Shown here one piece after another: positions 2,458 to 58,517 of a stretch of DNA of 64,000 nt (position 1 is its first letter; the number at the start of each line of letters is the position of its first letter). Below the pieces are notes generated by a model. The model did not search any database, was not told the DNA's origin, and worked only from the letters and a program-made list of their open reading frames with translations. Made by a program: the position numbers and the translations under genes. The stretch spans positions 5,160 to 69,159 of the forward strand of contig JABDKH010000196.1 in NCBI GenBank assembly GCA_013002345.1. The letters run 5' to 3'. This stretch comes from Rhodothermales bacterium. GTDB lineage: Bacteria; Bacteroidota; Rhodothermia; Rhodothermales; JABDKH01.

Positions 2458-2484
2458 TTAACACGCGATATGAAGCGCCGATAA
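2458..2484 (+). promoter_or_regulatory. Candidate sigma-28 (FliA-type) promoter: TTAAC-N14-GCCGATAA
   Basis: gTTAACacgcgatatgaagcGCCGATAAtgc. Exact match to the sigma-28 -10 consensus GCCGATAA, with a TTAA/TAAC -35-like element at canonical distance. Lies 59 nt upstream of the NlpC/P60 start. Same architecture as 10333-10359. Confidence 0.45.
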
Positions 2485-2542
2485 TGCAAGAATGGAGGGT
2501 TCGTGCCCGGCGGGCCCATTCATCGTTCTCCGGACTTAAGTG

Positions 2543-3157
2543 ATGATACACCACCATCTAGCGTCCCTGTCGTTTGCGGTTGTCGTACTGCTCGTTGCGG
2601 GCTGCAGCGGCGCCGGCGCATCGCGTTCTGCAGAGCCCAATGAAGACTCCGTTCCGGTACGAAGCCTTCCGGAGGATGTCAGTGACGCGAAAGCCGAGCT
2701 CGTTTCGCAGATAAATCGATGGCTGGGTACGGCGTACCGCTACGGCGGCACGGACGCCTCCGGATTCGACTGCTCTGGATTCGTACGGCGCGTCATGCGC
2801 GATGCCTTCGACGAGTCCTTGCCTCGGACCACCCGGGCCCAGATGCGCGTCGGATCCGAAGTCAAACGGACAGATCTACGGACGGCAGACCTGGTCTTCT
2901 TCCGCACCCCCGCTCGAAGTGATCACGTAGGAGTATACCTGGGAGATGGTGAGTTTGCACATGCATCGTCTAGCAGCGGAGTGATGATTTCGCACCTCAG
3001 CGAATCCTACTGGTCGAAATCCTATCGGACCGCTCGCAGGCTGTTTCACCTTGAAGATATCAGCGACTCGGACCAATCATCCGAGACACACGCGGCTCCA
3101 TCGAGCGCCGCTCGACTTGCCACCGCCCCCCCAACGTCCGGGCGCGTCGGTTGGTGA
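2543..3157 (+). CDS. NlpC/P60 (C40) family peptidoglycan endopeptidase lipoprotein
   Basis: Lipobox LLVAGC after a hydrophobic signal. Catalytic-Cys region GGTDASGFDCSGFVRRV and downstream DHVGVYLG, typical of NlpC/P60. Confidence 0.85.
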   Translation: MIHHHLASLSFAVVVLLVAGCSGAGASRSAEPNEDSVPVRSLPEDVSDAKAELVSQINRWLGTAYRYGGTDASGFDCSGFVRRVMRDAFDESLPRTTRAQMRVGSEVKRTDLRTADLVFFRTPARSDHVGVYLGDGEFAHASSSSGVMISHLSESYWSKSYRTARRLFHLEDISDSDQSSETHAAPSSAARLATAPPTSGRVGW

Positions 3158-7524: not shown

Positions 7525-7652
7525 TCACTGAAAGAGATTGATTGGGCCGGTAGTTATTCATACTTTAGGTGGCTGAATATGCGCGTTGAACTCGCGCCAT
7601 CCTCCCGCTCTCGCGTCGGTAGCCAATCCGGCGCTCCAAAGTAGAGAAACTC

Positions 7653-7967
7653 ATGTATGCGATCGTAGAAATTTCTGGAAAGCAATACCGCGTCCAGGAA
7701 AACGACCGGCTCTTCGTACCACGCCAAGACGTCGAAGTTGACAAGTCACTTACCTTTGACCGAGTGCTCTTGCTCTCTAATGGCGATGATGTCCAGGTAG
7801 GAACACCGGTCCTTAAAGGCGCTTCCGTCAAGGCAAAAGTGTTGAGTCAGGTCAAAGCTGACAAGATTTTCGTCTTTAAGAAGAAACGCCGAAAGCGTTA
7901 CCGGGTGAAAAACGGACATCGTCAACCGTACACCCAGATTGAAGTATCATCCATCAAGGCCAAGTAG
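7653..7967 (+). CDS. rplU: 50S ribosomal protein L21
   Basis: MYAIVEISGKQYRVQENDRLFVPR...KKKRRKRYRVKNGHRQPYTQIEV. Confidence 0.97.
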   Translation: MYAIVEISGKQYRVQENDRLFVPRQDVEVDKSLTFDRVLLLSNGDDVQVGTPVLKGASVKAKVLSQVKADKIFVFKKKRRKRYRVKNGHRQPYTQIEVSSIKAK

Positions 7968-8008
7968 AGACGCTTAGTCCAGCTGGGGCAATTTGCAGGT
8001 AGGGTATA

Positions 8009-8266
8009 ATGGCACATAAGAAAGGAATGGGGTCGACGAAGAATGGTCGCGACTCCAAACCCAAAATGCTCGGCATCAAGACCTTCGGCGGCGAATTCGT
8101 CAAGGCGGGCGGCATTCTTGTTCGGCAAAGGGGTACCAAATTCCATCCCGGCACGAACGTTGGACGTGGTGGCGATGACACGCTTTTTGCACTCGCCGAA
8201 GGCCACGTGAGATTCACGCGAGGCCACCGCGATCGGAAGTATGTGCACGTCGATCCCGCAGAGTAG
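8009..8266 (+). CDS. rpmA: 50S ribosomal protein L27
   Basis: [48 protein letters not shown]. Confidence 0.97.
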
Positions 8267-8301
8267 ACGCGCACATTTACATTCCGATGAGTAGCTGAAA
8301 A

Positions 8302-8340
8302 GGGTCCCCACGAGTTTGTGGAGACCCTTTCTTCGTTTTC
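8302..8340 (+). terminator. Rho-independent terminator after rpmA, between convergent genes
   Basis: GGGTCCCCAC-gagttt-GTGGAGACCC (10-bp stem, one mismatch) followed by TTTCTTCGTTTTC. Confidence 0.6.
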
Positions 8341-8348
8341 GCAGTAGG

Positions 8349-10265
8349 CTACAGGCCGCTGAATACGACGCGCGACATCTCCTCGATCGTCGTCTCGCCT
8401 GCGATGACCATTGCACGTGCACTATCCTGCAGCGTCAGCATTCCCTGCTTGATCGCAAGTCTTCCGAGGGCCGCCTCGTCGATCGCCTCCTCAGCTTCGA
8501 CAATCATCTCCCGGATCTCAGGCGTGAACGGCATCGTCTCCGTAATGGCACGACGCCCCTTGTAGCCGACCCCCCGGCACGTCTTGCACTTACCTCCTTC
8601 CGTCGCATTGTAGAACGTAATCTTGTCTAGCTCTTCGGGCCTGAATCCAAGGTGCGACAGCTTGCTCTTCTCAATAGACGTCGCCGGCGCCTTGCAGTCC
8701 TGGCAGACTGTTCGGATCAATCGCTGTGCCACAACGAGGTTGATCGCGTATGCGATCAGAAACGGTTCAATGCCCATCTTGTAGAGTCGGCTTATCGAAC
8801 TTGGGGCGTCGTTCGTATGAAGCGTCGAGAACGTCAGGTGACCCGTGTTCGCCAGCTTGATGGCCAGGTCGGCCGTATCCTTGTCGCGCATCTCTCCGAC
8901 CATGACAATGTCCGGGTCGTGTCGGAGTATTGAGCGGAGGGCTTGATCCAGTGAGAGCTTGTGGCTCAGCTTCACCTGACGCACCTCGGGGATAACATAC
9001 TCTACGGGGTCCTCCACCGTCAGCACATTGACTTTCGGTGTGACGACGTGACTCAGAGCCGCGTAGAGAGTCGTGCTCTTTCCGGAACCAGTGGGACCCG
9101 TTAGAATGACCATCCCGTACGGCTGGTGTATCGCCCACTCAAAACGCTCGAGTGCACTCTCTGCCAGACCGAGCTTTCGCAGATCCTTGATGACCTTTCG
9201 GTCGTCGAGGATCCGGATAACGATGCTCTCTGATCGAACCGTCATTTCGGCGTTCGCGATCGGCAGCACCGATACGCGAAACCGAATGAGCGCATTGTCG
9301 ATCTCTCTCTGTATGAACCCGTCCTGAGCACGCTCCCGCTCGAATCGATCTACGTTGATACTGTTGTCCTTCACGACCGCGAGGAACGCCTCCGGGTGGA
9401 CGCGGTCTTCAATGTGCCAACTGGTAAGCTCACCGTCGATCCGCAGTCGAATTTCGATTTCTTTACGGGCGTTCGGGAAGATGTGCACGTCGGAAGCACC
9501 CTGACGCACGGCTTCTTTCAACGTTGCTTCGAACAGGTTGATGAGCGCCGACCGATTGATCTCGGCCTCAAGCGCGTCCTCGTCAAAGAGTGCGCGCTCA
9601 GGATCGTCCACGGAGGCGCCCAGGTCAAACGCGAGCATGCCTTCCGCCGCCTTTCCAAAATCTCCCTTGCGGCGCCGGCGAACCTCATCAATGAATCCGT
9701 CAACCTCGACACGCTTCGCGAAACGGATCTCGATCTCCCGAAAACCAAGTTTCTGGAGCGTTCTCATCAGGTCCTGGCGGGCCGGATCGTGCGTGGCCAT
9801 TATCACGCGTCGTCCTTCTGAGCCTTCCTCGATCTTTACAGGCGCCACGCGGAGTTGCTCGAGCCCTGCCCACTGATCGGCCGTAATTCGGGCACCAAGG
9901 CCCTTCAGAAAGTCGGTAGGGTCCATTCCCTCGAGGCTGATCGTCGCAAACGAATACACGATCGCGGCCTGTTCAAATACAATTTCCGGATCGATTTCCG
10001 GGTCTTCAGCCAGTTCTCGCCAGAGTGGGTAACTCGTGCCTCCCTCCTTCTTGACCCAACGGTCCCACGCCGCCTGCACATGTTGGATGAGCACGAGTTC
10101 CTCGTACAGGAGCTTGATAACAACCCGGTCCCGCAGATCAAGTGGGTTGAATGTGGTTGAGTCCGGCGACTCGGGAACTCCGGCGGATCCGTTCCCACTC
10201 GGGCTTGAATCGGGACGGGCTAATGCATCAGCCTGCCAGCGTTGGTCCTTGGATGACTCTGCCAT
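8349..10265 (-). CDS. GspE/PilB-family secretion/type IV pilus assembly ATPase (orphan; unusual N-terminal extension)
   Basis: Walker A GPTGSGKSTT, Asp/His boxes, tetracysteine CQDC...CKTC, and a T2SSE_N-like region (RRVIMATHDPARQDLMRTLQKLGF). Start preferred at ATG 10265; the ORF track uses GTG 10319. No pilC/pilM/pilQ neighbours. Confidence 0.9.
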   Translation of the reverse strand: MAESSKDQRWQADALARPDSSPSGNGSAGVPESPDSTTFNPLDLRDRVVIKLLYEELVLIQHVQAAWDRWVKKEGGTSYPLWRELAEDPEIDPEIVFEQAAIVYSFATISLEGMDPTDFLKGLGARITADQWAGLEQLRVAPVKIEEGSEGRRVIMATHDPARQDLMRTLQKLGFREIEIRFAKRVEVDGFIDEVRRRRKGDFGKAAEGMLAFDLGASVDDPERALFDEDALEAEINRSALINLFEATLKEAVRQGASDVHIFPNARKEIEIRLRIDGELTSWHIEDRVHPEAFLAVVKDNSINVDRFERERAQDGFIQREIDNALIRFRVSVLPIANAEMTVRSESIVIRILDDRKVIKDLRKLGLAESALERFEWAIHQPYGMVILTGPTGSGKSTTLYAALSHVVTPKVNVLTVEDPVEYVIPEVRQVKLSHKLSLDQALRSILRHDPDIVMVGEMRDKDTADLAIKLANTGHLTFSTLHTNDAPSSISRLYKMGIEPFLIAYAINLVVAQRLIRTVCQDCKAPATSIEKSKLSHLGFRPEELDKITFYNATEGGKCKTCRGVGYKGRRAITETMPFTPEIREMIVEAEEAIDEAALGRLAIKQGMLTLQDSARAMVIAGETTIEEMSRVVFSGL

Positions 10266-10332
10266 AGTTGTGTCTGAGACGAACAGGAAATGGGCGGAAC
10301 TTGAGCCGGAATGGAACACCGGTCAATGTTCG

Positions 10333-10359
10333 TTATCGGCCTCTGAAAGGGTCCGTTAA
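10333..10359 (-). promoter_or_regulatory. Candidate sigma-28 (FliA-type) promoter: TTAAC-N14-GCCGATAA
   Basis: The minus strand reads cTTAACggaccctttcagagGCCGATAAcgaac. Exact -10 octamer, and the same -35-like pentamer and spacing as 2458-2484. Lies 68 nt upstream of ATG 10265. Confidence 0.45.
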
Positions 10360-10469
10360 GGGATTGCAGGCCCCCTATTTTCGGAGTCGTGACCGCGACG
10401 TCGGATCGGCCACACGAAATGCCGCCACCGGCCGCACGATATCCTCGTGATCGGAAGCTCTTTCAGGTT

Positions 10470-10488
10470 CGTGGAATCGATTTCCACG
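10470..10488. promoter_or_regulatory. Perfect inverted repeat CGTGGAA-N5-TTCCACG (candidate enhancer/UAS for the sigma-54 activator)
   Basis: Read directly from the sequence. Lies about 170-185 nt upstream of the sigma-54-like promoter at 10656, the usual distance range for bEBP binding sites. Confidence 0.35.
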
Positions 10489-10655
10489 TGACAGCGCTGT
10501 TTGTTGAAGAGGAGGACTCTGGATTGACAACATCCTTACGTACAAGGACAGTTCCTGTGATGCTTTTTAAATAAGTGTGATACAAGTGGTTATAGATAAT
10601 TAGTAATGTAAAAATTGAAGTCTACCGAATCGCTGATCTCGTCGCCGCCACACCT

Positions 10656-10671
10656 TGGCGCGACACTTGCT
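10656..10671 (+). promoter_or_regulatory. Sigma-54 (-24/-12) promoter
   Basis: TGGCGC-gacac-TTGCT versus consensus TGGCAC-N5-TTGCW: one mismatch, correct GG-to-GC spacing (12 nt). An AT-rich tract (10555-10625) and the palindrome lie upstream. Confidence 0.6.
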
Positions 10672-10748
10672 TGCATGTGAGTAGCATTCCACCGGGTGCG
10701 TCGATCGTCACCAGATCACGCTCCCTTCCACTCTACCCGAGTATCGCC

Positions 10749-11585
10749 ATGATTCATCAGATTCGCGCCGCGTCGGCTCAGGCTTTCCTTGCCAACTACC
10801 GACTTCCCCACCGCACTTTCGCGCAGAAGGACCCGAACTTCCCGGTGATCGGCCCGATCTGGGACGCTATGAAAGAGGGCGACTACCGGATCGCAGCCGG
10901 CCTCGTCACCGCCGAACTCGAAGGCCAGAGGTTATTCAGCGCCGAGGAAAAGACGGCCATGATGGTCGCTCTCGCCAATGCAGAAGTACTGATGGGCAAG
11001 ACGGATCGCGCCAAAAAAACCGCAGGAAAGACGCTGGATCTGTTTCCAAACCAGTGGTCCGGCCATAGAGTCCTGATTCATGTTCTCCACCTGAAACAGG
11101 CCTACAAGGCCGCATACCTTCAACTGCGCAAGCTCGAGCCGGGCCCCGTGCCGCTGTGGGACTGCCCGATAGGAACCACCGAAAGACACACCGTCATGGC
11201 GGCCTGGTCCTGGCTGTTGGGCGAGTGGGAACGCGTCTCCACTCATCTGAAGAAAGCCTACCCAGACGGAATAGATTCGATGCCTGCTGAAATCCAGGAG
11301 GACTGGTTCAGGCTCTCGCTGTACCGCGGACGCCCACAGGACGCAGTCGCTGTCGCTTCGCTACTGATTGAGCAGCGCCCTGTCGACCTGGCCGATGAAC
11401 TGCTGCAGACGTTCGTCCAGAATGGTTGGACCAAGGAAGCACTTCCCCTCTATCGTGCCGCATACGAGAGCGCACCACAGAGCCAGCTGCTTCGACGACG
11501 TCTCGTCGCGCTATGCATACGCGAGGGTGAACTGGAGGAAGCGCGGGATCTCACGCGGCCCGGTGCCCTCGACCTGGCAGCATAG
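10749..11585 (+). CDS. Hypothetical all-helical (TPR-like) protein, putative sigma-54-dependent
   Basis: Clean ORF with no signal peptide or TM. Repeated helical pairs (…AMMVALANAEVLMGKTDRAKKTAGKTLDLFP…, …ALPLYRAAYESAPQSQLLRRRLVALCIREGELEEARDL). Start set at the first ATG downstream of the sigma-54 promoter, which overlaps the ORF-track TTG start at 10671. Confidence 0.6.
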   Translation: MIHQIRAASAQAFLANYRLPHRTFAQKDPNFPVIGPIWDAMKEGDYRIAAGLVTAELEGQRLFSAEEKTAMMVALANAEVLMGKTDRAKKTAGKTLDLFPNQWSGHRVLIHVLHLKQAYKAAYLQLRKLEPGPVPLWDCPIGTTERHTVMAAWSWLLGEWERVSTHLKKAYPDGIDSMPAEIQEDWFRLSLYRGRPQDAVAVASLLIEQRPVDLADELLQTFVQNGWTKEALPLYRAAYESAPQSQLLRRRLVALCIREGELEEARDLTRPGALDLAA

Positions 11586-11695
11586 GGAACGAGAACCGAC
11601 GACTGTGCGCTGCTACCTGCGTGCCCGTAGCACGCACCGGAAGATTTTTCCGGAAGATCTTTAAGTCGCGAAGCCGAACTGGCGATAAGAACATT

Positions 11696-11838
11696 GTCAG
11701 CGGCATGCGACCCCGGTCGATAGATCGGGAAATCCCACGGGAAAGGTTCTGGCGATAATGGTTCCCCTGGGTAACGGACGGAATGGCGAACCGTCCCTCA
11801 GCGGCCTTCAGGTTACCTGGAGGCCGCTGTTTCTTTTT
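11696..11838 (+). ncRNA. Candidate small RNA (promoter-like element to intrinsic terminator), function unknown
   Basis: TTAAG-N15-GGCGATAA (11661-11688, a weaker version of the sigma-28-like motif) lies upstream. Internal hairpin GGACGG-aatggcgaa-CCGTCC (11776-11796). Strong terminator at 11799-11838. No ORF of 60 aa or more on this strand. Confidence 0.25.
11799..11838 (+). terminator. Rho-independent terminator
   Basis: CAGCGGCCT-tcaggttacctgg-AGGCCGCTG (perfect 9-bp stem) followed by TTTCTTTTT. No T-tract in the opposite orientation. Confidence 0.6.
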
Positions 11839-11863
11839 GCGAGAATCGGACTTCCGTGCTTCG

Positions 11864-12094
11864 CTACGCGGCCTTTCGGACGTCCGGCTCTGAATCGGGA
11901 TCTGCCCGCAGCTCAACGATAGTCAGCGTGGTGTCGCCAGAATCATCAAGGTCATCCGGCCGCTCCGAAGCAAGCTGGACAACGTGAGACGCATCGGCGA
12001 TGAACTCCGATTTCAAGGCGTTCAGCTGTACAACCTGCGACGCAGGTTCGGCCGGCGGGCACGCTTTGCGATTCGATTCCAATGGTTCCTTCAT
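11864..12094 (-). CDS. Small acidic hypothetical protein (76 aa)
   Basis: MKEPLESNRKACPPAEPASQVVQLNALKSEFIADASHVVQLASERPDDLDDSGDTTLTIVELRADPDSEPDVRKAA. Lies downstream of, and co-directional with, the sigma-54 activator gene. Codon third-position GC resembles neighbouring genes. No recognisable family. Confidence 0.3.
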   Translation of the reverse strand: MKEPLESNRKACPPAEPASQVVQLNALKSEFIADASHVVQLASERPDDLDDSGDTTLTIVELRADPDSEPDVRKAA

Positions 12095-12323
12095 GGTCGT
12101 TCCATGCCGGTATGGGTGGCATGTCACTCCGACGCCGTAATCGTGCCAAACGCACAGCCGCACCTGTATCGTTCGTCGCAGATCTGACCCTGGAGCCTCT
12201 CGAAAAGCCAGAAAGAGCGATTCTGGCAGCCGAGTCGATGGCAGAGGCCATGCAGCTCGCGGACGATGAAGCGGTCGTTCGCGGCAAGCGTTTCCGGAAA
12301 GATGAGGGTTGCCCCCCAGCGGT

Positions 12324-13712
12324 CTACGAGATCAACCCGTCTTCGCGGTACTTCTTGAGCTTGTTTCGGATTGTGCGAGCGCTGATGCCCAGCTTCTGTG
12401 CCGCCAGCTGCTGATTGTTGTTCGTCTCCGACAGGGTTCGCAGGATCATGTGCCGTTCCATCTCCTCGATGGTCTCGATATTAACAGGAGCGTCCGCCCC
12501 GTCACCTCCGGCGACCAGGTCGGCGTCTATGAAGAAGCTGTCGAATACGTCAGTCTTTTCGACGGTGGTTCGCTCCGCGGAGAGCAATACACCTCGCTGC
12601 ACCATGTTCTCAAGTTGGCGCACGTTCCCGGGCCATGAGTAGGTCATGAATTGATCCAGAAGCTCCTTCGAGACCTGCTTCGATGGCAGTCCGTAGAGCT
12701 CGCAGTACTTGACCACGAAGTGTTTCGTCAGAACCGGCACGTCCGACATGCGGTCCCTGAGCGGAACGCCGTTTACCGGAAAGACAGAAATCCGGAAGTA
12801 CAGATCCTCGCGGAAATCGCCCTCGCGAATAGACTCGGACAGGTTCCGGTTGCTGGTCGCGATCACGCGCACATCAACCTTTTGAGGTTCAGAGGCACCG
12901 ACCTTCATGAACTCGTTCTCCTGGAGGACCCTGAGGAGCTTCGCCTGGGTCGGCAGATCGATCTCTGTGATTTCGTCCAGCAAAAGCGTCCCCTTGTCTG
13001 CTTTCTCAAACGCACCGACCATATCATCGATTGCTCCCGTGAACGCACCTTTTCGATGACCGAAGAGATGGCTTTCAACCAGCTCGCGAGGCAAGTTGGC
13101 GCAGTTTACGGCGATAAACGGCCCGGAGGCACGGTCACTGCTCTCGTGGATCAACCGCGCCAGAATCTCTTTGCCAGTTCCGCTTTCACCCTGGATAAAA
13201 ACCGGCGCGGCGTTCTGACTCACTTTCGGTATGACCTCCAGAAGCCGGGCAACGGACGGATGCTCTCCGATGAACTGAACGGTGGGTGCCGATCTCTTGC
13301 GCGCCGACGGGCTCTCGGCAGCCGCCCGCGGCGCTGCCTGCGTCTTCCTCTTCAGGACGTCCTGAATCCGTTCAACGACGAGAGACGGCTGAAACGGCTT
13401 CGCAATGTAGTCCACGGCTCCGGACCGCATGGTGCGCACGGCGTGCTGCACGTTCGCATGAGCAGTGATCATGATCACACCGAGATCAGGGTAATTCTGA
13501 CGAATGTGCGCAAGCAGCTCGAGGCCGTCCATGTCCGGCATCATGAAGTCAGTCACGACCAGGTCGAAGTTCTCTGTCTTCAAATGCTCCACGGCCTTGA
13601 CGGCACTGGAGCAACATGTCACGCTCATGTCGTGACGAGCCACAAGACGTTCAAACATCTTGTGAAGCATCACCTCGTCGTCGACGAAGAGGATGTGTGG
13701 AGTGTGGTCCAT
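12324..13712 (-). CDS. Sigma-54-dependent response regulator (NtrC/PilR class: REC + AAA+ + Fis-type HTH)
   Basis: REC domain (ILFVDDE…DLVVTDFMMPDMDG…KPF); AAA+ with GESGTGKE, the GAFTGA loop and ATSNRNL; C-terminal HTH QQLAAQKLGISARTIRNKLKKY. No sensor kinase gene adjacent. Confidence 0.93.
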   Translation of the reverse strand: MDHTPHILFVDDEVMLHKMFERLVARHDMSVTCCSSAVKAVEHLKTENFDLVVTDFMMPDMDGLELLAHIRQNYPDLGVIMITAHANVQHAVRTMRSGAVDYIAKPFQPSLVVERIQDVLKRKTQAAPRAAAESPSARKRSAPTVQFIGEHPSVARLLEVIPKVSQNAAPVFIQGESGTGKEILARLIHESSDRASGPFIAVNCANLPRELVESHLFGHRKGAFTGAIDDMVGAFEKADKGTLLLDEITEIDLPTQAKLLRVLQENEFMKVGASEPQKVDVRVIATSNRNLSESIREGDFREDLYFRISVFPVNGVPLRDRMSDVPVLTKHFVVKYCELYGLPSKQVSKELLDQFMTYSWPGNVRQLENMVQRGVLLSAERTTVEKTDVFDSFFIDADLVAGGDGADAPVNIETIEEMERHMILRTLSETNNNQQLAAQKLGISARTIRNKLKKYREDGLIS

Positions 13713-14130
13713 TGATCTCAGATTCCGGCAGCAATCACGGGTGGGTTGATGTCGAAGATACTAACTATCTCGACAGCTATGATGTCCATCCGCTAGCGGC
13801 CGGCTCAAACTCATCCTGTCCGAACCGCCCCGTCGAGAGAGGGGCTAGCGGTCGTCCGACCGACTATTCAGCGTTGCCCGGAGGCATCTTTGGGTCATCG
13901 TGCGGTAGGATTTTCCGAACGATTGCCCTGGTCCTAAGCGCAAGTCATTGAGATGGGCCACGTGCGCAACGTGCAACTCAAACGTGTGGAAGGGCGCGTC
14001 GCAGCATGTGCCCGCCGGATACGAGCGGCAATCTAACAGGCCCTCATGAGCTGAAATCCCTGTTTTTTGGCTGACCATTGCCGTCCGCCGGACGCGATCG
14101 ATCGAACCGTTTATGTCAATCTGGCGAACG

Positions 14131-14138
14131 GCCGATAA
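14131..14138 (+). promoter_or_regulatory. Exact sigma-28 -10 octamer GCCGATAA upstream of the small-membrane-protein/fliA operon (no good -35)
   Basis: cgaacgGCCGATAAcg, 99 nt upstream of ATG 14237. The -35 position reads TATG/TTAT, not TTAAC/TAAA. Confidence 0.25.
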
Positions 14139-14174
14139 CGATAAAGTTGACGCATGCACCAGCTCTTCCGTCAC

Positions 14175-14189
14175 TGGCATCAATCTTGG
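14175..14189 (+). promoter_or_regulatory. Imperfect sigma-54-like element TGGCAT-N5-TTGG
   Basis: Correct 12-nt -24/-12 register, but the -12 element is GG rather than GC. Lies 48 nt upstream of ATG 14237 and is divergent from the sigma-54 activator gene. Confidence 0.25.
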
Positions 14190-14236
14190 ATTGCTTGCGC
14201 TCGCACTACCCAGGCATCCAACCCATCGGTCCTACC

Positions 14237-14491
14237 ATGCGCGTTCTAACGCTTCAGTTCAGTGTCCTCATCGGGGTCCTGACATTTGTGAGCCAGATTA
14301 CAAGCGGGATGGCACTCGAATCGTCGATGCTGCGCGGCCTTGCCACGGCATCCGCCATCTTCCTCGTCATGCTGCTGGGTGACCTCGCAATTCAGGCCGT
14401 TGTTCGGTCGCATTCACCGGCACAAGCTTCGTCCGCCCGGCCGGTCCCCAATCGAGACAGCGGAGATCAAAGCGACGCGCTCGCTGCCTAG
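14237..14491 (+). CDS. Small membrane protein (84 aa, two predicted TM helices)
   Basis: MRVLTLQFSVLIGVLTFVSQITSG…ATASAIFLVMLLGDLAIQAVV, then a polar tail. Lies immediately upstream of the FliA-family gene on the same strand. Confidence 0.45.
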   Translation: MRVLTLQFSVLIGVLTFVSQITSGMALESSMLRGLATASAIFLVMLLGDLAIQAVVRSHSPAQASSARPVPNRDSGDQSDALAA

Positions 14492-14552
14492 ACACCCGCC
14501 TCTCGCATCGCCAGTCATCGCCACATTACAACTGTTGATTCGCATGTCGCAA

Positions 14553-15305
14553 GATCTACAGAGTCTCGCCGTTCTCTACGCCCGCGATACATCCCCTTCG
14601 AACCGTGAAGCCGTCGTCGTCGCAGCGGTTCCACTCGTAAGGTCAGTCGTTGGTCGACTCAGCGTGCCCGATCATCCTCTGGCGGCACGCGAGGACCTGG
14701 AAAACGTCGGCCTGCTGGGACTGTTGCAGGCCCTGAACGGCTACGATCCCGATCGCGGGACACCGTTCGTTTCCTATGCCTACGGTCGCATCCGCGGAGC
14801 GCTCGTAGACTATCTCAGATCCATCGATGCCCTTCCGCGAGAACGCCGAAGGAAGCTGGCGCAGGCACAGCGGGCCATCGACATTCTGAGGCAAAAGAAG
14901 GCCGGTGAGCCGACCGACCACGAAGTCGCCGACTATCTTGAAATGACACTTGTGGAATACCACACGCTCCTACGGGACGCCCAGTGCCGCTTCGCTCTGT
15001 CGCTCCACGCACCCACGGACAGCGACGGTGAACAAACAGTCCTCGAGACAATTCCCAACGAAGAGACGCTCAAGGCTTTTGAGCGCATCGATACCAACTC
15101 GCTCCATCGGTACATTGGAACGCTCGTCAAGGAGCTGCCGGAACGGGAGCAAACGATCCTGGCCCTGTACTACTACGAAAGCCTGACGCTCAGGGAAATC
15201 GCCGCCCTGCTAGACCTCACCGAAGCACGCATATCACAGATCCTCGGCAAGATCCTGAAAACACTCCGTGCCCAGCTCGCCAAGACGCACGCACGCGCCG
15301 CCTGA
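14553..15305 (+). CDS. fliA: FliA/WhiG (sigma-28) family RNA polymerase sigma factor
   Basis: Strong colinearity with FliA: LENVGLLGLLQALNGYDPDRGTPFVSYAYGRIRGALVDYLRS (regions 2.1-2.4) and LPEREQTILALYYYESLTLREIAALLDLTEARISQILGKILKTLRAQL (region 4). Start set at ATG 14553 (250 aa). Confidence 0.88.
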   Translation, partial: DLQSLAVLYARDTSPSNREAVVVAAVPLVRSVVGRLSVPDHPLAAREDLENVGLLGLLQALNGYDPDRGTPFVSYAYGRIRGALVDYLRSIDALPRERRRKLAQAQRAIDILRQKKAGEPTDHEVADYLEMTLVEYHTLLRDAQCRFALSLHAPTDSDGEQTVLETIPNEETLKAFERIDTNSLHRYIGTLVKELPEREQTILALYYYESLTLREIAALLDLTEARISQILGKILKTLRAQLAKTHARAA

Positions 15306-15526
15306 GACCACACCGACGTCCATTTCTCGTCCGCCTCCTCGGTGAGCGGCTTGCCGTTAAGCTTGTGCGAAGCCGCAAAACAATTGGGCTGATTGCCAGT
15401 ATATTTGTGTTTCCAGCCACCGGTCAGTAGCGAAACACGGCCCATCGACGCACAGCGTCAGATCGCAAATCGCATCCTGGACCCGGACCCACACAACAGC
15501 GATCCATTTTTCAGGTGATATAAGTC

Positions 15527-17614
15527 ATGGGACTCATGACCAAGATGCGGGACAACACGGGCGTTGTCCTCTGGATTCTGGTGATTGCGTTTGGCGTCAT
15601 CTTTATGCTCCAGGATACCAACGTCTTTGACGTTATCGGAGCAACGGGCAACATCATTGCCAAGGTGAACGGTCAGGACGTATCACTTGATGAATACAAC
15701 AATTACGTCAACAACCAGGTGGAGGCCTATCGACAGCGCACCGGCGAGTCGATTCCGCCTCAGATTCTGGATTCAGAACGAGAGCGAGTATTCAACGAGT
15801 TGGTCGACGATCGACTGCGCGAGCAAGAGATGAGCCGAATCGGAATCGTCGTCACAGATGACGAGGTGCGGCAGATGGTTCTTGGCGACAACCCGCACCA
15901 GATAATCCGTACGTTTTTCGGTGACGGTCAGGGAAACGTCGACCGGGCGGTGCTACGCAATTTTATTGAGAATCCAGATGCACGGGAGGACCTGATTCGA
16001 ATCGAGGATTATCTCCGAACCGAACGGCGGCGAGAGAAACTCGATCGCCTTATCGACGCGTCGGTGCGCGTCTCCGACCAGGACGTCCTCAGTGAGTACA
16101 TAAGCCAGAAGAAGCGCATTAACGTTCAGTATGTGGCTCTTCCGTACGCACTGGTGCCGGATTCCGCGATAACGGTGTCCGAGCGCGACATCAGGAAGTA
16201 CTACGACGAACATCTGTCGGACTACGAGCGCAAGCGCGCATATTCGCTGGTCTACGTCAGGAGCAGCAAGACGCCGACAAGTAGCGACTCTGCCGCGGTG
16301 ACGGAAGAGCTGGTCCGGCTGAAGCCTCGCTTCGAGGCCGCCGAGAATGACTCCCTTTTTCTGGCCCAGAATTTCTCGGAGACTCCGCTTTCCGATGCCT
16401 TTTTTGGCCGTGGTGACCTGGATGATGCCATTGCCGAGGCGGTCTTCCAATCCCCCCGGAAAGGCGACGTGCTTGGCCCGGTTGCAGCTGGTGGCAGCAT
16501 GCATCTCGTCAAGATACTGGATGTCAAGTCGGCGGATGACCCGTCCGTTCGTGCCCGTCACATCCTGATCAGGGCTGCCGAAGACGACAACGTTCAGCGA
16601 ACGGCCGCGAGGGAGCTCGCTCGATCTGTCATGGAACGCATTCGTGCGGGCGAGGATTTCGCCGCAGTTGCTCGCGCGATTTCAGACGACACCCAGTCAG
16701 CTCGGGACGGTGGTGACGTCGGATGGTTCAGTAAGGGTCGCATGGTGAAACCGTTTGAAGACGCCGCCTTCGCCGCTCGCGTCGGGCGTTTGATCGGCCC
16801 GGTCGAAACCCAGTTTGGATATCACGTCATCGAAGTGACGGGTCGAAGCACCGATGAAGTTCAGATTGCGGACTTCGCTCTGAAACTTGCGCCCAGTGTC
16901 GCGACGCTGACTCGCGTGGAAGAAAATCTGGACGACCTGAAGTTCTTTGCCGAGGAAGAGGGCGGTTTCCGAGCAGAGGCCGAACGAAGAGGGCTGACCG
17001 TTCAAACGGTTCAGGTAGAGGCAGACCAGCAGTTCATCCCTGGAATTGGAAACAGTCGGGCCTTGCTCAATTTCCTTGCTACGGCCTCCGTGTCGTCCAT
17101 CAGCCCGGTCGTGGAGCTGAACGACGATTTCATGGTCGCCGAGGTTACAGACATTCAGGAGGCTGGCTACCGGCCTCTGGCGGACGTTCGAGCTGAAATA
17201 GAACCGAGGGTTCGATTGGAGAAGAAGCGAGATGTTCAGCTGGCGAAGATGACCAACGCAAACGCATCTGGTCTTTCAGAGCTGGCGTCCGTTCTGTCAA
17301 CTACCGTCAGAACCGCCAATGGATTGACTATGTCTGAGCCCGTTGTCCCGGGCCTTGGCCGCGAGCCAAAGTTTGTGGGAACCACCTTTGGCCTCCAGCA
17401 GGGTCAAGTGTCACGCCCGGTCGCCGGACAGAATAACGCGTTCGTTATCGACGTCCTCAGTATCGCCGAGCCCCCGGAGATCACAGATGCCGAGAAGGAA
17501 CGCATTCGAAATCAGCTTCTGACGCAGAGACGATCACAGGTTCGTTCTCAGTGGCTAACGTCCATCCGTTCGAAGGCGGATGTGACCGACAATCGCCGAT
17601 TCTTCTTGCAGTAG
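15527..17614 (+). CDS. ppiD: Periplasmic chaperone/peptidyl-prolyl isomerase PpiD-like (SurA_N + parvulin domain)
   Basis: N-terminal anchor GVVLWILVIAFGVIFML; parvulin core RARHILIRA…GGDVGWFSKGRMVKPFEDAAF…GYHVIEV; 695 aa. Confidence 0.85.
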   Translation: MGLMTKMRDNTGVVLWILVIAFGVIFMLQDTNVFDVIGATGNIIAKVNGQDVSLDEYNNYVNNQVEAYRQRTGESIPPQILDSERERVFNELVDDRLREQEMSRIGIVVTDDEVRQMVLGDNPHQIIRTFFGDGQGNVDRAVLRNFIENPDAREDLIRIEDYLRTERRREKLDRLIDASVRVSDQDVLSEYISQKKRINVQYVALPYALVPDSAITVSERDIRKYYDEHLSDYERKRAYSLVYVRSSKTPTSSDSAAVTEELVRLKPRFEAAENDSLFLAQNFSETPLSDAFFGRGDLDDAIAEAVFQSPRKGDVLGPVAAGGSMHLVKILDVKSADDPSVRARHILIRAAEDDNVQRTAARELARSVMERIRAGEDFAAVARAISDDTQSARDGGDVGWFSKGRMVKPFEDAAFAARVGRLIGPVETQFGYHVIEVTGRSTDEVQIADFALKLAPSVATLTRVEENLDDLKFFAEEEGGFRAEAERRGLTVQTVQVEADQQFIPGIGNSRALLNFLATASVSSISPVVELNDDFMVAEVTDIQEAGYRPLADVRAEIEPRVRLEKKRDVQLAKMTNANASGLSELASVLSTTVRTANGLTMSEPVVPGLGREPKFVGTTFGLQQGQVSRPVAGQNNAFVIDVLSIAEPPEITDAEKERIRNQLLTQRRSQVRSQWLTSIRSKADVTDNRRFFLQ

Positions 17615-17657
17615 CTCCGCCCGTCTGTGCACGCCGCAGCTTCGTCTTGCGGGGGAT

Positions 17658-18545
17658 TCACGCTTCGTGGTCGAAGCTTCCTCGGTACACTACCGCTGCC
17701 GGACCTTCCAGTGTTAGCTGCTCAATTCGCTCGCCATCCCGCCGGATGCCGACTGAAAGAACACCGCCCGGCATATGGACGCGGACGGTCGTGGCCTGAC
17801 TCAAGAACCGCGCGGCAGACACAAGCGCCGCAGCAACAGCGCCCGTGCCACATGCCATCGTCTCGGCCTCAACGCCCTTCTCGAACGTACGGACATAGAT
17901 TGTGGGCGTCGCCTTCGACCCGTCCACGTCACTTATCTGGACGAAATCAACATTGACGCCGGTCGGAGCAAAACCCGGATCTCGTCGAATTCGTGTGCCT
18001 AGACGCGTGACATCCACTGCGCCTACATCTGACGTGAAACACACGGCGTGCTCAGTACCGGTCCAGATCGGATAGGCGTCGATGTTCTCCCCGCTAATCC
18101 TGTCGGCGTGCAGCCCCCCGGTATCGACCGTCCGACAAACCAGGTCGAGACCTGGATACGGCGGTGGAAGGTACAGGGTCACCGAGTCTCCCGAGTCACT
18201 GATTTTGGCCCGATAGACGCCGGCCTCGGTCTCAAAAACCAGATTGGGCTCCGTGTAGCCCGCTCCACGGGCAAAAAGCACCAGGCAGCGAGCCCCATTG
18301 CCGCACATGGTCCCAATTGATCCGTCAGCGTTTAGATACCGCATCCGGAAATGATGGGCGGCATTCTCCGGCTCTTCGAGGGCCAGCAGCCCGTCGGCCC
18401 CGATTCCGAAACGACGCCGACAACGCTCACGCGCCATACTGGACAGCTCATGGTCGCCGAAGTTGAAGAAACGATTGTCGATCACGATGAAGTCGTTTCC
18501 GGCACCGTTCATTTTGGTAAATTCAACAACAAGCGAACGTGGCAT
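17658..18545 (-). CDS. dapF: Diaminopimelate epimerase
   Basis: FTKMNGAGNDFIVIDNR, and the catalytic cysteines in MCGNGARC and MACGTGAVAAA. Confidence 0.93.
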   Translation of the reverse strand: MPRSLVVEFTKMNGAGNDFIVIDNRFFNFGDHELSSMARERCRRRFGIGADGLLALEEPENAAHHFRMRYLNADGSIGTMCGNGARCLVLFARGAGYTEPNLVFETEAGVYRAKISDSGDSVTLYLPPPYPGLDLVCRTVDTGGLHADRISGENIDAYPIWTGTEHAVCFTSDVGAVDVTRLGTRIRRDPGFAPTGVNVDFVQISDVDGSKATPTIYVRTFEKGVEAETMACGTGAVAAALVSAARFLSQATTVRVHMPGGVLSVGIRRDGERIEQLTLEGPAAVVYRGSFDHEA

Positions 18546-18638
18546 CTCGCGACTTTGCTTTCGGCTGTACTGCCGATACCGATTCTTGACCCTTTGCTGT
18601 TTTCCGAAGCTACGCCAACGTTACGGGCACACCAACCA

Positions 18639-19616
18639 TTGACTGAGAAACGTTACACGATCGAGACCGTCGAGCCACTGCTTCTTTTCGGGCTGAACGA
18701 CGCATACCTGCGCAAGATCGAGTCCGCTTTTCCTGAGACTCGAATAACAGCTCGCGGAAACGAGTTGCTTCTGAAAGGCAGCGCCGATCAGCTGAGACTC
18801 ATCGAGCGCATCATGGAGGAACTTACGCTCGCCATCGGCCGCAATGGGAACCTGACCGAGAACGACGTTGACACGGTGCTGGCGTTGTTCACAACCAATG
18901 GTGAGCGTGGTCCTGCGATGCTCGGAGAACATGTGGTTCTTTACAAGCCTGATGGAGGCACGGTCAAGGCGCGGACGCCGAACCAGATTGCGCTCGTGGA
19001 GTCTGCTCGAGGCCACGACATTGTGTTCGCGATTGGACCGGCCGGAACCGGCAAGACATACACCGCCGTCGCTCTCGCTGTCTCGGCATTGAAATCCCGA
19101 CAGGTTCGTCGCATTGTATTGTGTCGACCGGCCGTCGAGGCAGGCGAGCGGCTCGGTTTCCTGCCAGGTGACTACCGCGACAAGGTCGACCCGTATCTCC
19201 GACCCCTCTATGACGCGCTGGAGGATATGATTCCGCGTGAGAAACTTGCGCAGTACATGGAGCAGAATGTTGTTGAGATCGCCCCGATCGCCTACATGCG
19301 CGGCCGGACCCTCCACTCCTCTTTCGTCATCCTTGACGAGGCGCAGAACGCCACAACCCAGCAGATGAAAATGTTCTTGACACGCCTTGGAACATCAAGC
19401 CGTGCTATCGTGACCGGGGACATCACGCAAATCGACCTTGCGAGTCGCTTCGACAGCGGATTGATCCAGGCAAGATCGATTCTGCCCGATGTGGACGGGA
19501 TCTCGTTCGTCTACTTTGATACCCGAGACGTGGTGCGGCACAAACTTGTCAAGGACATTATCGCGGCTTACGAAAAGATGGAGAGCGACAAGACAGCCGG
19601 CGACCCGTCGTCGTAA
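18639..19616 (+). CDS. phoH: PhoH-family ATPase
   Basis: GPAGTGKTYTAVALAV, LCRPAVEAGERLGFLPGD, FVILDEAQN. The start is most plausibly TTG 18639 (in frame, just past the divergent dapF start). The ORF-track start 18351 would overlap dapF by about 195 nt. Confidence 0.9.
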   Translation: MTEKRYTIETVEPLLLFGLNDAYLRKIESAFPETRITARGNELLLKGSADQLRLIERIMEELTLAIGRNGNLTENDVDTVLALFTTNGERGPAMLGEHVVLYKPDGGTVKARTPNQIALVESARGHDIVFAIGPAGTGKTYTAVALAVSALKSRQVRRIVLCRPAVEAGERLGFLPGDYRDKVDPYLRPLYDALEDMIPREKLAQYMEQNVVEIAPIAYMRGRTLHSSFVILDEAQNATTQQMKMFLTRLGTSSRAIVTGDITQIDLASRFDSGLIQARSILPDVDGISFVYFDTRDVVRHKLVKDIIAAYEKMESDKTAGDPSS

Positions 19617-19921
19617 AGCGACGAAGACGTCGCCTCTCGTCACCGCGCTCTATGGCCGGCCGGCTGTGCTCTCCTCTACCACTGCGTAGCAGTGGCGGCC
19701 CGGCGCCTTCGACGAGAGCGACGCGGGTCCTGTCAATCGCACCAGAATACCGTCCGGCCCATACGGAGGATGTCGTGATCGCTCTGCCATTGATCTTCTC
19801 CACGGTCACGCCTGGTTCGTCTCGCAACCTACTCTCCATCAATGGGTTGTCCAGTTCTGTCTGGCGCCACCGAGACACTTCTCGATAAGCCATGCCCTTG
19901 GCCATTCGTGAACTGCGAACG

Positions 19922-20809
19922 CTATCGGCGGGCCCGTCGATTCTCCGGCACGCGCTCAAAGACATTATCAATCAGGCGCGTCTCTCCAAAATGGACGGCC
20001 ACGGCGGCAACCACGTGATCGCCGGCGGACAGCGTCGACATCGGCTGCAAGGATTCCGCGTCAACCACTTCGGCATATTGCAATTTCGCCAGTGGAGCCA
20101 ACGCAACACACGCTTTCATAGCGTCCACCACAGCCACGGGATTCGACTCGCCTTCGAGAATGAGCCTCTGCGCTGTAGAGACCGCATCATGCAATACGGT
20201 CGCCTGCGCTCGAGCCTCCTCGTTCAGGTACTTGTTTCTCGATGAGAGAGCCAACCCGTCCGGCTCTCGAACGGTTGGACCACCAACAATCTCGATACCG
20301 AAGTTCAGATCGAGTGCCATCCTTCGGACGATCACAAACTGCTGTGCATCCTTCCGTCCAAATACGGCGACGGTTGGCATACACGAGTTGAACAGCTTCG
20401 CGACGATGGTCGTCACGCCTTCGAAGTGGCCGGGACGAAACGGCCCGCATAGATGATCCGTCAACGACCGGGGCACCACGCGTATCACCTGTGACGACAC
20501 GCCGTTGGCATAGATGTCGTCGACCGTTGGCGCAAACACGGCGTCAACACCTCCCGCTTCTCCCAACCTCTTCAGATCGCCGGCCAGGTCACGAGGATAC
20601 CTTCCGAAGTCTTCATTCGGTCCAAACTGCGACGGATTGACGAACACGGACACTATTACGACAGGAGCCGCTTCACGGGCCAGGGACAGAAGCGACAGGT
20701 GCCCGGCGTGGAGTGCACCCATGGTTGGTACCAGGGCTACGTCGTTACCGCGCTTGCGAGATGCAAGTGCTAACCTGCGCATCTCGTCAACATCGCTGAT
20801 GACTTTCAT
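19922..20809 (-). CDS. panC: Pantoate--beta-alanine ligase
   Basis: VALVPTMGALHAGHLSL, FVNPSQFGPNEDF, GRKDAQQ. Start at ATG 20809. Confidence 0.93.
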   Translation of the reverse strand: MKVISDVDEMRRLALASRKRGNDVALVPTMGALHAGHLSLLSLAREAAPVVIVSVFVNPSQFGPNEDFGRYPRDLAGDLKRLGEAGGVDAVFAPTVDDIYANGVSSQVIRVVPRSLTDHLCGPFRPGHFEGVTTIVAKLFNSCMPTVAVFGRKDAQQFVIVRRMALDLNFGIEIVGGPTVREPDGLALSSRNKYLNEEARAQATVLHDAVSTAQRLILEGESNPVAVVDAMKACVALAPLAKLQYAEVVDAESLQPMSTLSAGDHVVAAVAVHFGETRLIDNVFERVPENRRARR

Positions 20810-20996
20810 GCATCCTCCCGAGAGTCCGTTGTTGTACGACCAAAATAGACTCCAAACTGCTGGCTTTTGCAAGTTGTCCCTACAGCCACAGGGACGCAAC
20901 TCTCGGCGTCCAGGCATATCTTGAGTACGGGCCGGTGCCAGACAACCCCGGCCGTCATTTCAAGTGCCGCGACCTTACATAGAAGCCCCTAACACT

Positions 20997-22397
20997 ATGT
21001 CCGAGTTTAGAATAGAGAAAGACTCCCTGGGTGACGTCCACGTGCCAGCGTCTGCTTACTACGGCGCCCAGACGCAGAGAGCGGTGGACAATTTTCCGAT
21101 CAGCGGTTTGCGATTCTCGCGCCGATTTATCCAGGCGCTCGGGATCATAAAGCAGGCTGCCGCGGAGGCCAACCTCGAGCTGGGTCTTCTGTCAATGGAG
21201 AAGGCCGAAGTGATTGCCGCCAGCGCCCAGGCGGTGGTTGACGGGGAGCTCGACGACCACTTCCCGATTGATATTTTTCAGACCGGTAGTGGCACCTCCA
21301 CCAACATGAATGCCAACGAAGTGATTGCAAATCACGCGTCGAAGGCCATGGGTGGCGACCTTGGCAGCAAGCTGGTTCATCCCAATGATGACGTCAACAT
21401 GTCGCAGTCTTCCAACGACGTCATCCCGTCCGCGATGCATGTTGCGGCCCGATCCGCAATCGAACACGAGCTGCTGCCGGCACTCGATCGCTTCCTCGAT
21501 GCGCTCCGGGCAAAAGAGGCCGAGTTCGATGACGTACTCAAGAGCGGGCGAACCCACCTTATGGACGCCACTCCGGTTCGGCTGGGACAGGAATTCGGCG
21601 GTTATGCGGCCCAGATCCAGAGCACGATAAAACGTCTCGAACGGGCGTCATCCGAGCTGTCGGAGCTTGCTCTCGGTGGTACAGCTACTGGAAGCGGTAT
21701 TAACAGGCATCCCGACTTCCCCGCAAAAGCGATCGATCGTATTTCCAGTAAGACTGCGCTCGATTTTCACGAGGCTTCAAATCATTTCGAAGCCCAGGCT
21801 TCGAAAGACGCCTATGTGTCGTGCGCGGGTGCACTAAACGCCGCTGCCGTCTCGGTGATGAAGATCGCCAATGATATCCGACATCTGTCCAGCGGTCCCA
21901 CCTCCGGTTTGTCCGAAATCAAACTGCCGGCGATACAGCCCGGTTCGTCGATCATGCCAGGTAAAGTGAACCCGGTCATGAGCGAGGCCATGATGATGGT
22001 TGCTTCACGCGTCATGGGTAACCACACCACCATTACGATTGCCGGGCAGCATGGGAATTTCGAGCTCAATGTCATGATGCCGGTCATGACGCACGCGATG
22101 CTCGAGAGCATCGTCATACTGACCGGGGCGTGTGATGCATTTCGTACGAACTGCCTGAACGGGATAGTCGCCGATCGCGACCGCTGCAAGGAGTTGTTGG
22201 AGTTAAATCCGTCCATAGCAACCGCCCTGAACAGCGCGATCGGCTATGACGCCGCGGCCAAAGTAGCCAAGAAGTCCGCCGCCGAACGCATCTCCGTCCG
22301 AGACGCCGCCAAGGCACTCGGACTCCTGGACGACGCAGAGCTTGATCGCTATCTGGATGTGAAGGGCATGACTGAACCGGGTATCCCGGGCGACTAG
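20997..22397 (+). CDS. fumC: Class II fumarate hydratase (aspartase/fumarase superfamily)
   Basis: FQTGSGTSTNMNANEV, HPNDDVNMSQSSNDV, and the signature GSSIMPGKVNP. Closer to FumC than AspA by motif. Confidence 0.88.
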   Translation: MSEFRIEKDSLGDVHVPASAYYGAQTQRAVDNFPISGLRFSRRFIQALGIIKQAAAEANLELGLLSMEKAEVIAASAQAVVDGELDDHFPIDIFQTGSGTSTNMNANEVIANHASKAMGGDLGSKLVHPNDDVNMSQSSNDVIPSAMHVAARSAIEHELLPALDRFLDALRAKEAEFDDVLKSGRTHLMDATPVRLGQEFGGYAAQIQSTIKRLERASSELSELALGGTATGSGINRHPDFPAKAIDRISSKTALDFHEASNHFEAQASKDAYVSCAGALNAAAVSVMKIANDIRHLSSGPTSGLSEIKLPAIQPGSSIMPGKVNPVMSEAMMMVASRVMGNHTTITIAGQHGNFELNVMMPVMTHAMLESIVILTGACDAFRTNCLNGIVADRDRCKELLELNPSIATALNSAIGYDAAAKVAKKSAAERISVRDAAKALGLLDDAELDRYLDVKGMTEPGIPGD

Positions 22398-43498: not shown

Positions 43499-43598
43499 CA
43501 GTTTGGTCTCCGGACTGTTCGGTCGCAGTTCGAATAGCACCGTGCCCCGCTACGATCATTGTTGCCCCACGTCAGTATGCGCCCACTTAACGAACACC

Positions 43599-58329: not shown

Positions 58330-58401
58330 GCTCCTGCTCCTCGATCTGTCGGGCTGCAGCTCCACGCGTCGTGAAGAGCCACCGAAGGTGGCCATCCGCA
58401 G

Positions 58402-58443: not shown

Positions 58444-58517
58444 GCGCTTGTAGCTCAGTTGGATAGAGCGTTGGATTCCGGTTCCAAAGGTCGGGGGTTC
58501 GAATCCTCCCAAGCGCG
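58444..58517 (+). tRNA. tRNA-Arg (anticodon CCG)
   Basis: Manual cloverleaf: acceptor GCGCTTG/CAAGCGC, D-arm GCTC…GAGC, anticodon stem TTGGA/TCCAA with loop TTCCGGT, T-arm GGGGG-TTCGAAT-CCTCC. No encoded CCA. Confidence 0.93.

Follow-up and report, generated by a model that had tools for sequence, protein, structure and literature searches.

A conserved sigma-28-type promoter predicted upstream of a PilB/GspE-like ATPase gene in the Rhodothermales

Introduction

A gene for a PilB/GspE-like secretion ATPase in a Rhodothermales metagenome-assembled genome is preceded by two short boxes resembling the promoters that FliA-family (sigma-28) factors read in other bacteria. Are these boxes a promoter, and what would a sigma-28 factor drive at a locus with no flagellar genes anywhere in the window, that is, in the whole 64,000-nucleotide stretch of DNA analysed here (57% G+C)?

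Comparison with related loci argues that the motif before the ATPase gene is a real, conserved sigma-28-type promoter, an element of a well-known kind in a little-studied order. Its particular features, as judged from sequence, are the lineage-specific TTAA form of the -35 box and a predicted local output that is non-flagellar. We put at about 85% the probability that the elements at 10333-10359 (minus strand) and 2458-2484 (plus strand) are promoters read by RNA polymerase with the FliA-family sigma factor of 14544-15305. The features of the locus are listed in Table 1.

Table 1. Coordinates of the features discussed, in positions of the window
Feature	Position	Strand	Basis or remark
Predicted sigma-28-type promoter of the NlpC/P60 gene	2458-2484	+	exact composite; 56 nt from GTG 2540
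-35 box TTAAC and -10 box GCCGATAA of the NlpC/P60 promoter	2458-2462 and 2477-2484	+	
NlpC/P60 lipoprotein, murein endopeptidase-like cell-wall hydrolase	2540-3157	+	PF00877, E 9e-30; lipoprotein signal LVAGC
Terminator-like hairpin directly after the ATPase stop codon, facing the rpmA end	8298-8331	-	-23.9 kcal/mol; z-score -4.8
PilB/GspE-like secretion ATPase gene, 638 aa, MshEN-like N-domain	8349-10265	-	PF00437, E 1e-99
Predicted sigma-28 (FliA)-type promoter of the ATPase gene	10333-10359	-	exact composite and conservation
-35 box TTAAC and -10 box GCCGATAA of the ATPase promoter	10359-10355 and 10340-10333	-	
Sigma-54-type promoter TGGCGC-N5-TTGC, divergent from the ATPase promoter	10656-10670	+	before TPR gene 10749-11585
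Sigma-54-dependent response regulator (NtrC/FlbD-like)	12324-13712	-	Pfam Response_reg, Sigma54_activat, HTH_8
Fourth octamer GCCGATAA (14131-14138) with deviant -35 TTATG, N16 to CCGATA	14111-14138	+	
Small protein with two transmembrane helices, ending DALAA	14237-14491	+	directly upstream of fliA
FliA (sigma-28) ortholog, 253 aa, presumed reader of the promoters	14544-15305	+	TIGR02479; synteny
Third composite, TTAAC-N13-GCCGATAA	63386-63411	+	antisense in a conserved minus-strand ORF

Composite motif in the window

The minus strand at 10333-10359 reads TTAACGGACCCTTTCAGAGGCCGATAA, in agreement with the original prediction. Its -10 element, GCCGATAA, was proposed to be the sigma-28 consensus, and the match is exact both here and before the NlpC/P60 gene. 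The octamer is identical to that of the E. coli and Salmonella class 3 flagellar promoters, which FliA recognizes as TAAAGTTT-N11-GCCGATAA. This consensus can be rewritten as TAAAG-N15-CCGATA, so that the Rhodothermales TTAAN fills the same five positions. The proposed -35 distance is likewise correct, with TTAAC-N15-CCGATA standing in the register of TAAAG-N15-CCGATA in E. coli and B. subtilis; B. subtilis SigD promoters, TAAA-N15-GCCGATAT, have an identical register. The FliA and SigD promoters differ from those described here in the -35 box, which is TAAA(G) there and TTAAN here. TTAAN is one base from TAAA, and the -35 boxes of the window depart from the textbook TAAA(G) by one or two bases.

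An exhaustive search of both strands returned exactly the four octamers claimed before, at 2477 (plus), 10333 (minus), 14131 (plus), and 63404 (plus). Shuffled sequences are expected to contain 1.5 octamers, and 8 of 100 shuffles attain four or more, so the count of GCCGATAA alone is not significant. The pattern TTAAC-N12..16-GCCGATAA occurs three times, at 2458-2484 (plus, N14), 10333-10359 (minus, N14), and 63386-63411 (plus, N13), and TTAAC is thus found 13-14 nt upstream of three of the four octamers as stated originally. The co-occurrence had been called non-random; in 100 dinucleotide-preserving shuffles the composite averaged 0.00 occurrences and not one shuffle held even a single copy. 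Allowing two mismatches at N14 added no sites to the exact composites of the window. No competing promoter of the TTGACA/TATAAT type was found in 7600-15400. The window was also scanned with a weight matrix built from regex-selected sites, an approach dropped in favor of exact-pattern statistics, spacer histograms, and conservation. Because mononucleotide shuffles attain scores of 15-17, the matrix scores of 18.5 for 2458-2484 and 17.0 for 63386-63411 are not discriminating.

Predicted promoters of the ATPase and NlpC/P60 genes

The composite before the ATPase gene is intergenic, correctly oriented, and located 68 nt upstream of ATG 10265. The choice of this start codon was right: the protein is 100% identical to P0001, a 638-residue NCBI protein of a Rhodothermales metagenome-assembled genome, which fixes the start, and its first residues, MAESSK, align with MKASEK and MEATEK of orthologs. 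Transcription is inferred to start near 10325 and would leave a leader of approximately 60 nt. An Rfam scan of the window returned only one tRNA, and hence no known RNA element in the leader.

The ATPase scores below the equivalog cut-offs for PilB (TIGR02538, 400 versus 675.65 bits) and for GspE (374 versus 630). The gene is monocistronic, and no pilC or pilin gene was found in the window. For these reasons the protein is termed PilB/GspE-like and is not assigned to PilB. An ORF of 166 codons at 7922-8422 (minus) was considered as a co-transcription partner and rejected, as it only shadows rpmA (8009-8266, plus) on the antisense strand.

The sequences upstream of the ATPase gene in two related loci, CCTTAACG in L001 and GGCCGATAACGA in L002, keep both boxes and have diverged in the spacer. 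Three other loci (L005, L006, and L066) contain cTTAAT-N16-ACGATA at the matching place, and Roseithermus sacchariphilus RA (L081) contains cTTAAG-N15-CCGATA. In R. marinus the motif is found only in degenerate form, as TTTAG-N15-CCGATT.

The composite before the NlpC/P60 gene is correctly oriented as well and faces a divergent PF06491 disulphide-isomerase/bacilliredoxin-like gene (ORF 1865-2557, minus). The true start of this gene is ATG 2371 and not 2557, which makes the composite intergenic. All five syntenic loci retain TTAAN-N16-CGATA upstream of their NlpC/P60 ortholog. At both the ATPase and the NlpC/P60 genes, the boxes occupy orthologous positions in relatives with 48-77% protein identity, and the spacer sequence has diverged. 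This conservation, together with the presence of the motif before motA described below, argues for the sigma-28 promoter reading put forward originally. In B. subtilis, SigD also drives cell-wall hydrolases and autolysins, including the NlpC/P60 enzyme LytF. Control of autolysis by flagellar sigma factors has been mentioned for the FliA/SigD family (PMC12871210).

The motif across Rhodothermales loci

The comparative set comprises the window and 80 Rhodothermales loci around relatives of the ATPase, 1.2 Mb in all. TTAAY-N15-CCGATA occurs 25 times in this set, and every other spacing from 0 to 39 gives 0-2 occurrences, with a mean of about 0.4. With the shorter core, TTAAY-N16-CGATA is present 33 times and TTAAY-N17-CGATA seven times. 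An unbiased tally of pentamers at N15 from CCGATA is led by TTAAC (13), TTAAT (10), TTAAG (6), and TTAAA (5), from which the -35 box of the lineage is TTAAN. TTAAC, originally named as the -35 box, is indeed present at the composites, but the consensus of the lineage is not specific for its last base. The classical TAAAG is found at the same offset in L017, L020, and L022.

Sixty sites in the set match TTAAN-N16-CGATA, and CGATA is their invariant core. An ORF on the same strand follows within 250 nt at 59 of them. Only 37% of the 60 sites lie inside long ORFs, as compared with 89% of random 26-mers (p = 2e-22).

The genes downstream of these sites include PilB-like or PilT-like ATPases and stand-alone copies of the ATPase N-domain (29 sites), pilin-like proteins of 136-192 residues beginning with MGQQQLLLL (13), NlpC/P60 proteins (5), T2SSF/PilC-like platform proteins (4), coiled-coil membrane proteins (3), and a 96-residue protein encoded upstream of fliA in L006 and L066 (2). 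These counts carry a sampling bias, as ATPases were the starting point for fetching the loci. PilC-like and pilin-like genes stand under the same motif at paralog loci of the relatives.

In flagellated Rhodothermales, the motif precedes motA in four of four loci, 80-180 nt upstream, in the form TTAAN-N15-(C/T)CGATA. The individual sequences are TTAAA-N15-CCGATA (L098), TTAAC-N15-TCGATA (L099), TTAAG-N15-TCGATA (L100), and TTAAG-N15-CCGATA (L101). From the base composition of the window, one such match is estimated to arise by chance in 300 nt with a probability of about 5e-4. The motif of E. coli likewise stands before motAB. From the distribution of the motif, FliA in the Rhodothermales probably acts on a type-IV-filament-like system in addition to the motility genes. 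The promoter model cTTAAN-N15-(C/T)CGATA is usable for an order with almost no transcription data and could serve in genome-wide scans to delimit the order's FliA regulon.

Two features of the genes under the motif were seen in passing. At four paralogous loci (L023 5688, L028 3731, L040 11851, and L049 11820), the motif lies inside the 3′ end of a PilB-like gene of 750-790 codons and precedes, as its putative promoter, a gene for a stand-alone ATPase N-domain of 218-242 residues. These stand-alone proteins match no curated family, with a sub-threshold MshEN hit (E 6e-4) only. The 136-192-residue proteins occur in pairs under the motif, start with MGQQQLLLLV(L/M)G, and have a hydrophobic N-terminal segment (L024 at 6204 and 6870, L046, L052, L067, L035, L043, and others). 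They match no Pfam or NCBIfam family.

The sigma factor and its locus

The original prediction also pointed to a FliA-family sigma factor encoded 4 kb from the ATPase promoter. The family assignment holds, with a TIGR02479 score of 200 bits against a cut-off of 189.6, but the start at 14553 does not: the true start is ATG 14544. Two gene starts are thus fixed in this work, ATG 10265 for the ATPase and ATG 14544 for fliA. The sigma factor is 100% identical to database protein P0121 (253 residues), contains Pfam regions r2, r3, and r4, and belongs to the FliA/WhiG group. Its homologs form more than 120 clusters at 70-100% identity, nearly all of exactly 253 residues, and its best matches among solved structures are WhiG and E. 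coli FliA. A look-up of the exact FliA sequence of the window returned no contig.

In L001, L006, and L066, synteny links the sigma gene to the ATPase locus. In four flagellated loci (L084, L098, L099, and L100), the gene order is motAB-fliLMN-fliOPQR-flhBA-flhF-flhG-(small two-helix protein)-fliA. In L084, fliA is followed by surA-like, dapF, phoH, panC, and fumarase genes, the order found in the window at 15527-22397. The position in the cluster and the downstream synteny identify the sigma factor of the window as a true FliA ortholog; the cognate factors of the E. coli FliA and B. subtilis SigD systems are orthologous to it. Homologs of the small two-helix protein are encoded between flhG and fliA in the same four loci, and before fliA in L085.

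The window and L085 both lack the motAB-fliLMN-OPQR-flhBA-flhF-flhG/chemotaxis cluster adjoining fliA, and a sigma-54 response regulator and other genes take its place on the upstream side. Despite the absence of the cluster, the locus retains the small two-helix protein, fliA, and the downstream synteny. The sigma-28 factor thus persists where the adjoining flagellar cluster is gone. The flagellar loss is that of the fliA-adjoining cluster only, in one window.

The structure of E. coli sigma-28 defines eleven residues that contact the -10 element (bioRxiv 10.1101/2020.01.02.893370), ten of which were compared with the sigma factor of the window. Four are kept (R74, R84, R94, and R95, equivalent to R82, R92, R102, and R103), and T69 is replaced by S77. 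Five others, H26, R34, R58, Q63, and Q73, are replaced by S, P, G, R, and G, respectively. In addition, R98 of E. coli sigma-28 aligns with an alanine. The phosphate-contacting residues at the -35 element, K208 and R220, correspond to R217 and R229. The -35 contacts of E. coli sigma-28 are weak and mostly non-specific (bioRxiv 10.1101/2020.01.02.893370), which fits a drift of the -35 box from TAAA to TTAA in the lineage.

The window yielded no FlgM-type anti-sigma factor. In L006 (5811-6098, minus) and L066 (6914-7204, minus), proteins of 96-97 residues are encoded just before fliA, with the motif upstream of their genes. Judged by eye, their C-terminal helix, EEQIAFYRARIESGFY, is FlgM-like. 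No FlgM assignment is made, since neither Pfam nor NCBIfam gives these proteins a hit at E <= 1 and the window encodes nothing corresponding to them.

Model of promoter recognition and alternatives

In the proposed model, domain 2 of the sigma factor would recognize the -10 box (G)CCGATA(A), of which the C-G pair would be the sigma-28 discriminator; C-13 and G-12 are the discriminating -10 bases of sigma-28 (bioRxiv 10.1101/2020.01.02.893370). Domain 4 would contact the TTAA box, at precisely the position that TAAA has in other bacteria. Transcription would begin approximately 7-8 nt past the octamer and would yield a monocistronic mRNA for the PilB/GspE-like ATPase and an mRNA for the NlpC/P60 cell-wall hydrolase. 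The same pair of sigma factor and promoter would serve the motility genes motAB-fliL in flagellated Rhodothermales, and type-IV-filament-like genes for PilB-like and PilT-like ATPases, the PilC-like platform protein, and pilin-like proteins. That the sigma factor of 14544-15305 binds the sites, that transcription starts where predicted, and that it depends on this factor are inferences from the sequence features described above.

Promoters of extracytoplasmic function (ECF) sigma factors, such as the sigma-W and sigma-E types, often have the form xxAAC-N16-CGTx. The composites might thus belong to another alternative sigma factor, for example of the ECF type, as an AAC in the -35 box and a CG in the -10 box about 16 nt away give TTAAC-N16-CGATA a superficial likeness to such promoters, and sigma region 4 is present in a further protein of the window (57463-58395). 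This assignment is improbable. The last base of the -35 box is free, with C, T, G, and A all occurring, so that the conserved unit is something other than AAC, and the -10 box matches the sigma-28 CCGATA(A) exactly and is not CGT. The motif also precedes motA in all four flagellated relatives and co-occurs with a highly conserved FliA ortholog.

Two short conserved boxes at a fixed distance are typical of dimeric regulators as well, and the composite could be read as an operator with two half-sites for a DNA-binding protein. We consider this quite unlikely, since the boxes are unrelated in sequence and form neither a direct nor an inverted repeat, the orientation of the sites toward the gene that follows is strict (59 of 60) and their distance from it, 4-180 nt, is promoter-like, and the boxes agree with an established sigma consensus in sequence as well as in register.

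That an A/T-rich pentamer and a common octamer stand together by chance, without function, is hardly credible and is effectively refuted for the ATPase and NlpC/P60 sites by conservation at orthologous positions: the unremarkable octamer count and the intragenic, antisense, unconserved composite at 63386-63411 speak for it, but the composite is expected 0.00 times, the spacer peak across 1.2 Mb is sharp, and the sites avoid coding sequence.

Third composite and fourth octamer

Recurrence of the composite at three places in the window had been claimed, and it does recur; only two of the copies look like working promoters, and the one at 63386-63411 is upstream of no gene. It falls within the final 25 codons of a minus-strand ORF extending from 63337 to beyond 64000, past the end of the window, and no plus-strand ORF follows it. 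Its spacer is one nucleotide short of the dominant class (2 sites versus 25), and the motif is conserved in none of seven homologs of the host ORF (40-54% identity). The antisense intragenic position, the off-peak spacer, and the lack of conservation make its function doubtful. Chance matches of this kind are estimated from base composition at about 0.003 per window and 0.2 per genome. In E. coli, 30 of 52 FliA sites detected by ChIP-seq are intragenic, most of them without stable RNA (PMC4183435). The composite at 63386-63411 is alike in that it fits the consensus well, lies inside a gene, and is antisense to that gene; it differs from the E. coli sites in being known from sequence only and in not being conserved in homologs. 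It is probably a bindable site, of uncertain function.

The fourth octamer is located 98 nt upstream of the operon of the small protein and fliA, and its spacer is one base longer. Only L001 has an identical element; L006 and L066 lack it and have a sigma-54 promoter instead. The octamer may be a weak autoregulatory promoter of the fliA operon.

Comparison with sigma-28-driven pili

The genes predicted to be driven here are non-flagellar, and the flagellar cluster flanking fliA is missing at the window locus, which distinguishes the system from those of E. coli FliA and B. subtilis SigD. A parallel is provided by Rubrobacter radiotolerans, which has WhiG-dependent type IV pilus promoters, and by Actinoplanes, in which zoospore pili are under FliA-family control (PMC8325347, PMC12871210). 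In these bacteria, as proposed here, a sigma-28-family factor with TAAA / GCCGATAA specificity drives pilus genes instead of, or besides, flagellar genes. They are Actinomycetota, whereas the window organism belongs to the Rhodothermota/Bacteroidota. Unlike Rubrobacter WhiG, the sigma factor of the window is accompanied by no RsiG-type c-di-GMP anti-sigma factor that we could see, and it is a positional ortholog of flagellar FliA and not a member of a separate WhiG2-type clade. The pilus-like system is known from genes alone, with pilin-like proteins that lack a family match, in contrast to the pili of Rubrobacter and Actinoplanes. The wiring of sigma-28 to type-IV-filament-like genes and a peptidoglycan hydrolase would thus extend outside the Actinomycetota.

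Sigma-54 elements and Ala-Ala tails

The TPR gene divergent from the ATPase gene has its true start at ATG 10749, approximately 78 nt past the sigma-54-type promoter, and L002 contains TGGCCC-N5-TTGC at the matching place (at about 1565, minus). The sigma-54-dependent response regulator is encoded between the TPR gene and fliA. In relatives, a sigma-54 promoter, TGGCAY-N5-TTGC or TTGA, precedes fliA or the small protein gene and fliA (L084 9535, L085 9595, L098-L100, L006, and L066). A candidate sigma-54 promoter before fliA of the window, TGGCTG-N4-TTGC at 14068-14081, was rejected: its GG-N9-GC spacing is one base short, unlike those of the relatives. The element is followed by GCCGATAA 50 nt later. 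The short sigma-54 element and the octamer may reflect a promoter switch, in which the fliA gene may have passed from a sigma-54 promoter to self-activation.

Several proteins of this locus share an unusual C terminus. FliA ends with HARAA (15291-15305), and an AA end is present in 106 of 120 homolog clusters. The tail is DALAA in the small two-helix protein (14477-14491) and LDLAA in the TPR protein (11571-11585). The stand-alone ATPase N-domain proteins of relatives end with RRAA or RKAA; Ala-Ala tails are found in L023, L028, L030, L034, L040, L045, L049, L053, L074, and L081. Three of the 47 genes of the window encode an AA end, all in the fliA/TPR locus, against a background of 2.8% of long ORFs, much of which comes from these same families. 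The tails are ssrA-like and may be a ClpXP-type degron. The sigma factor may be controlled by proteolysis rather than by FlgM export; it and the small membrane, TPR, and stand-alone N-domain proteins almost all end with Ala-Ala. The locus is flagged as a compact regulatory hub in which sigma-28, sigma-54, and a response regulator meet and proteins share the Ala-Ala C terminus.

A tentative joint reading, which we regard as possible rather than probable, is that FliA outlived the adjoining flagellar cluster and now runs a non-flagellar programme consisting of a type-IV-filament-like machine and a cell-wall endopeptidase, with self-activation and proteolytic control as possible features.

Other observations

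The 310-residue protein encoded at 57463-58395 (minus) has sigma-70 region 4 only, without region 2, and its gene adjoins the single tRNA gene of the window, at 58444-58517 (plus). An 811-residue protein encoded at 41105-43540 (minus) combines a CotH kinase domain with a lamin-tail domain.
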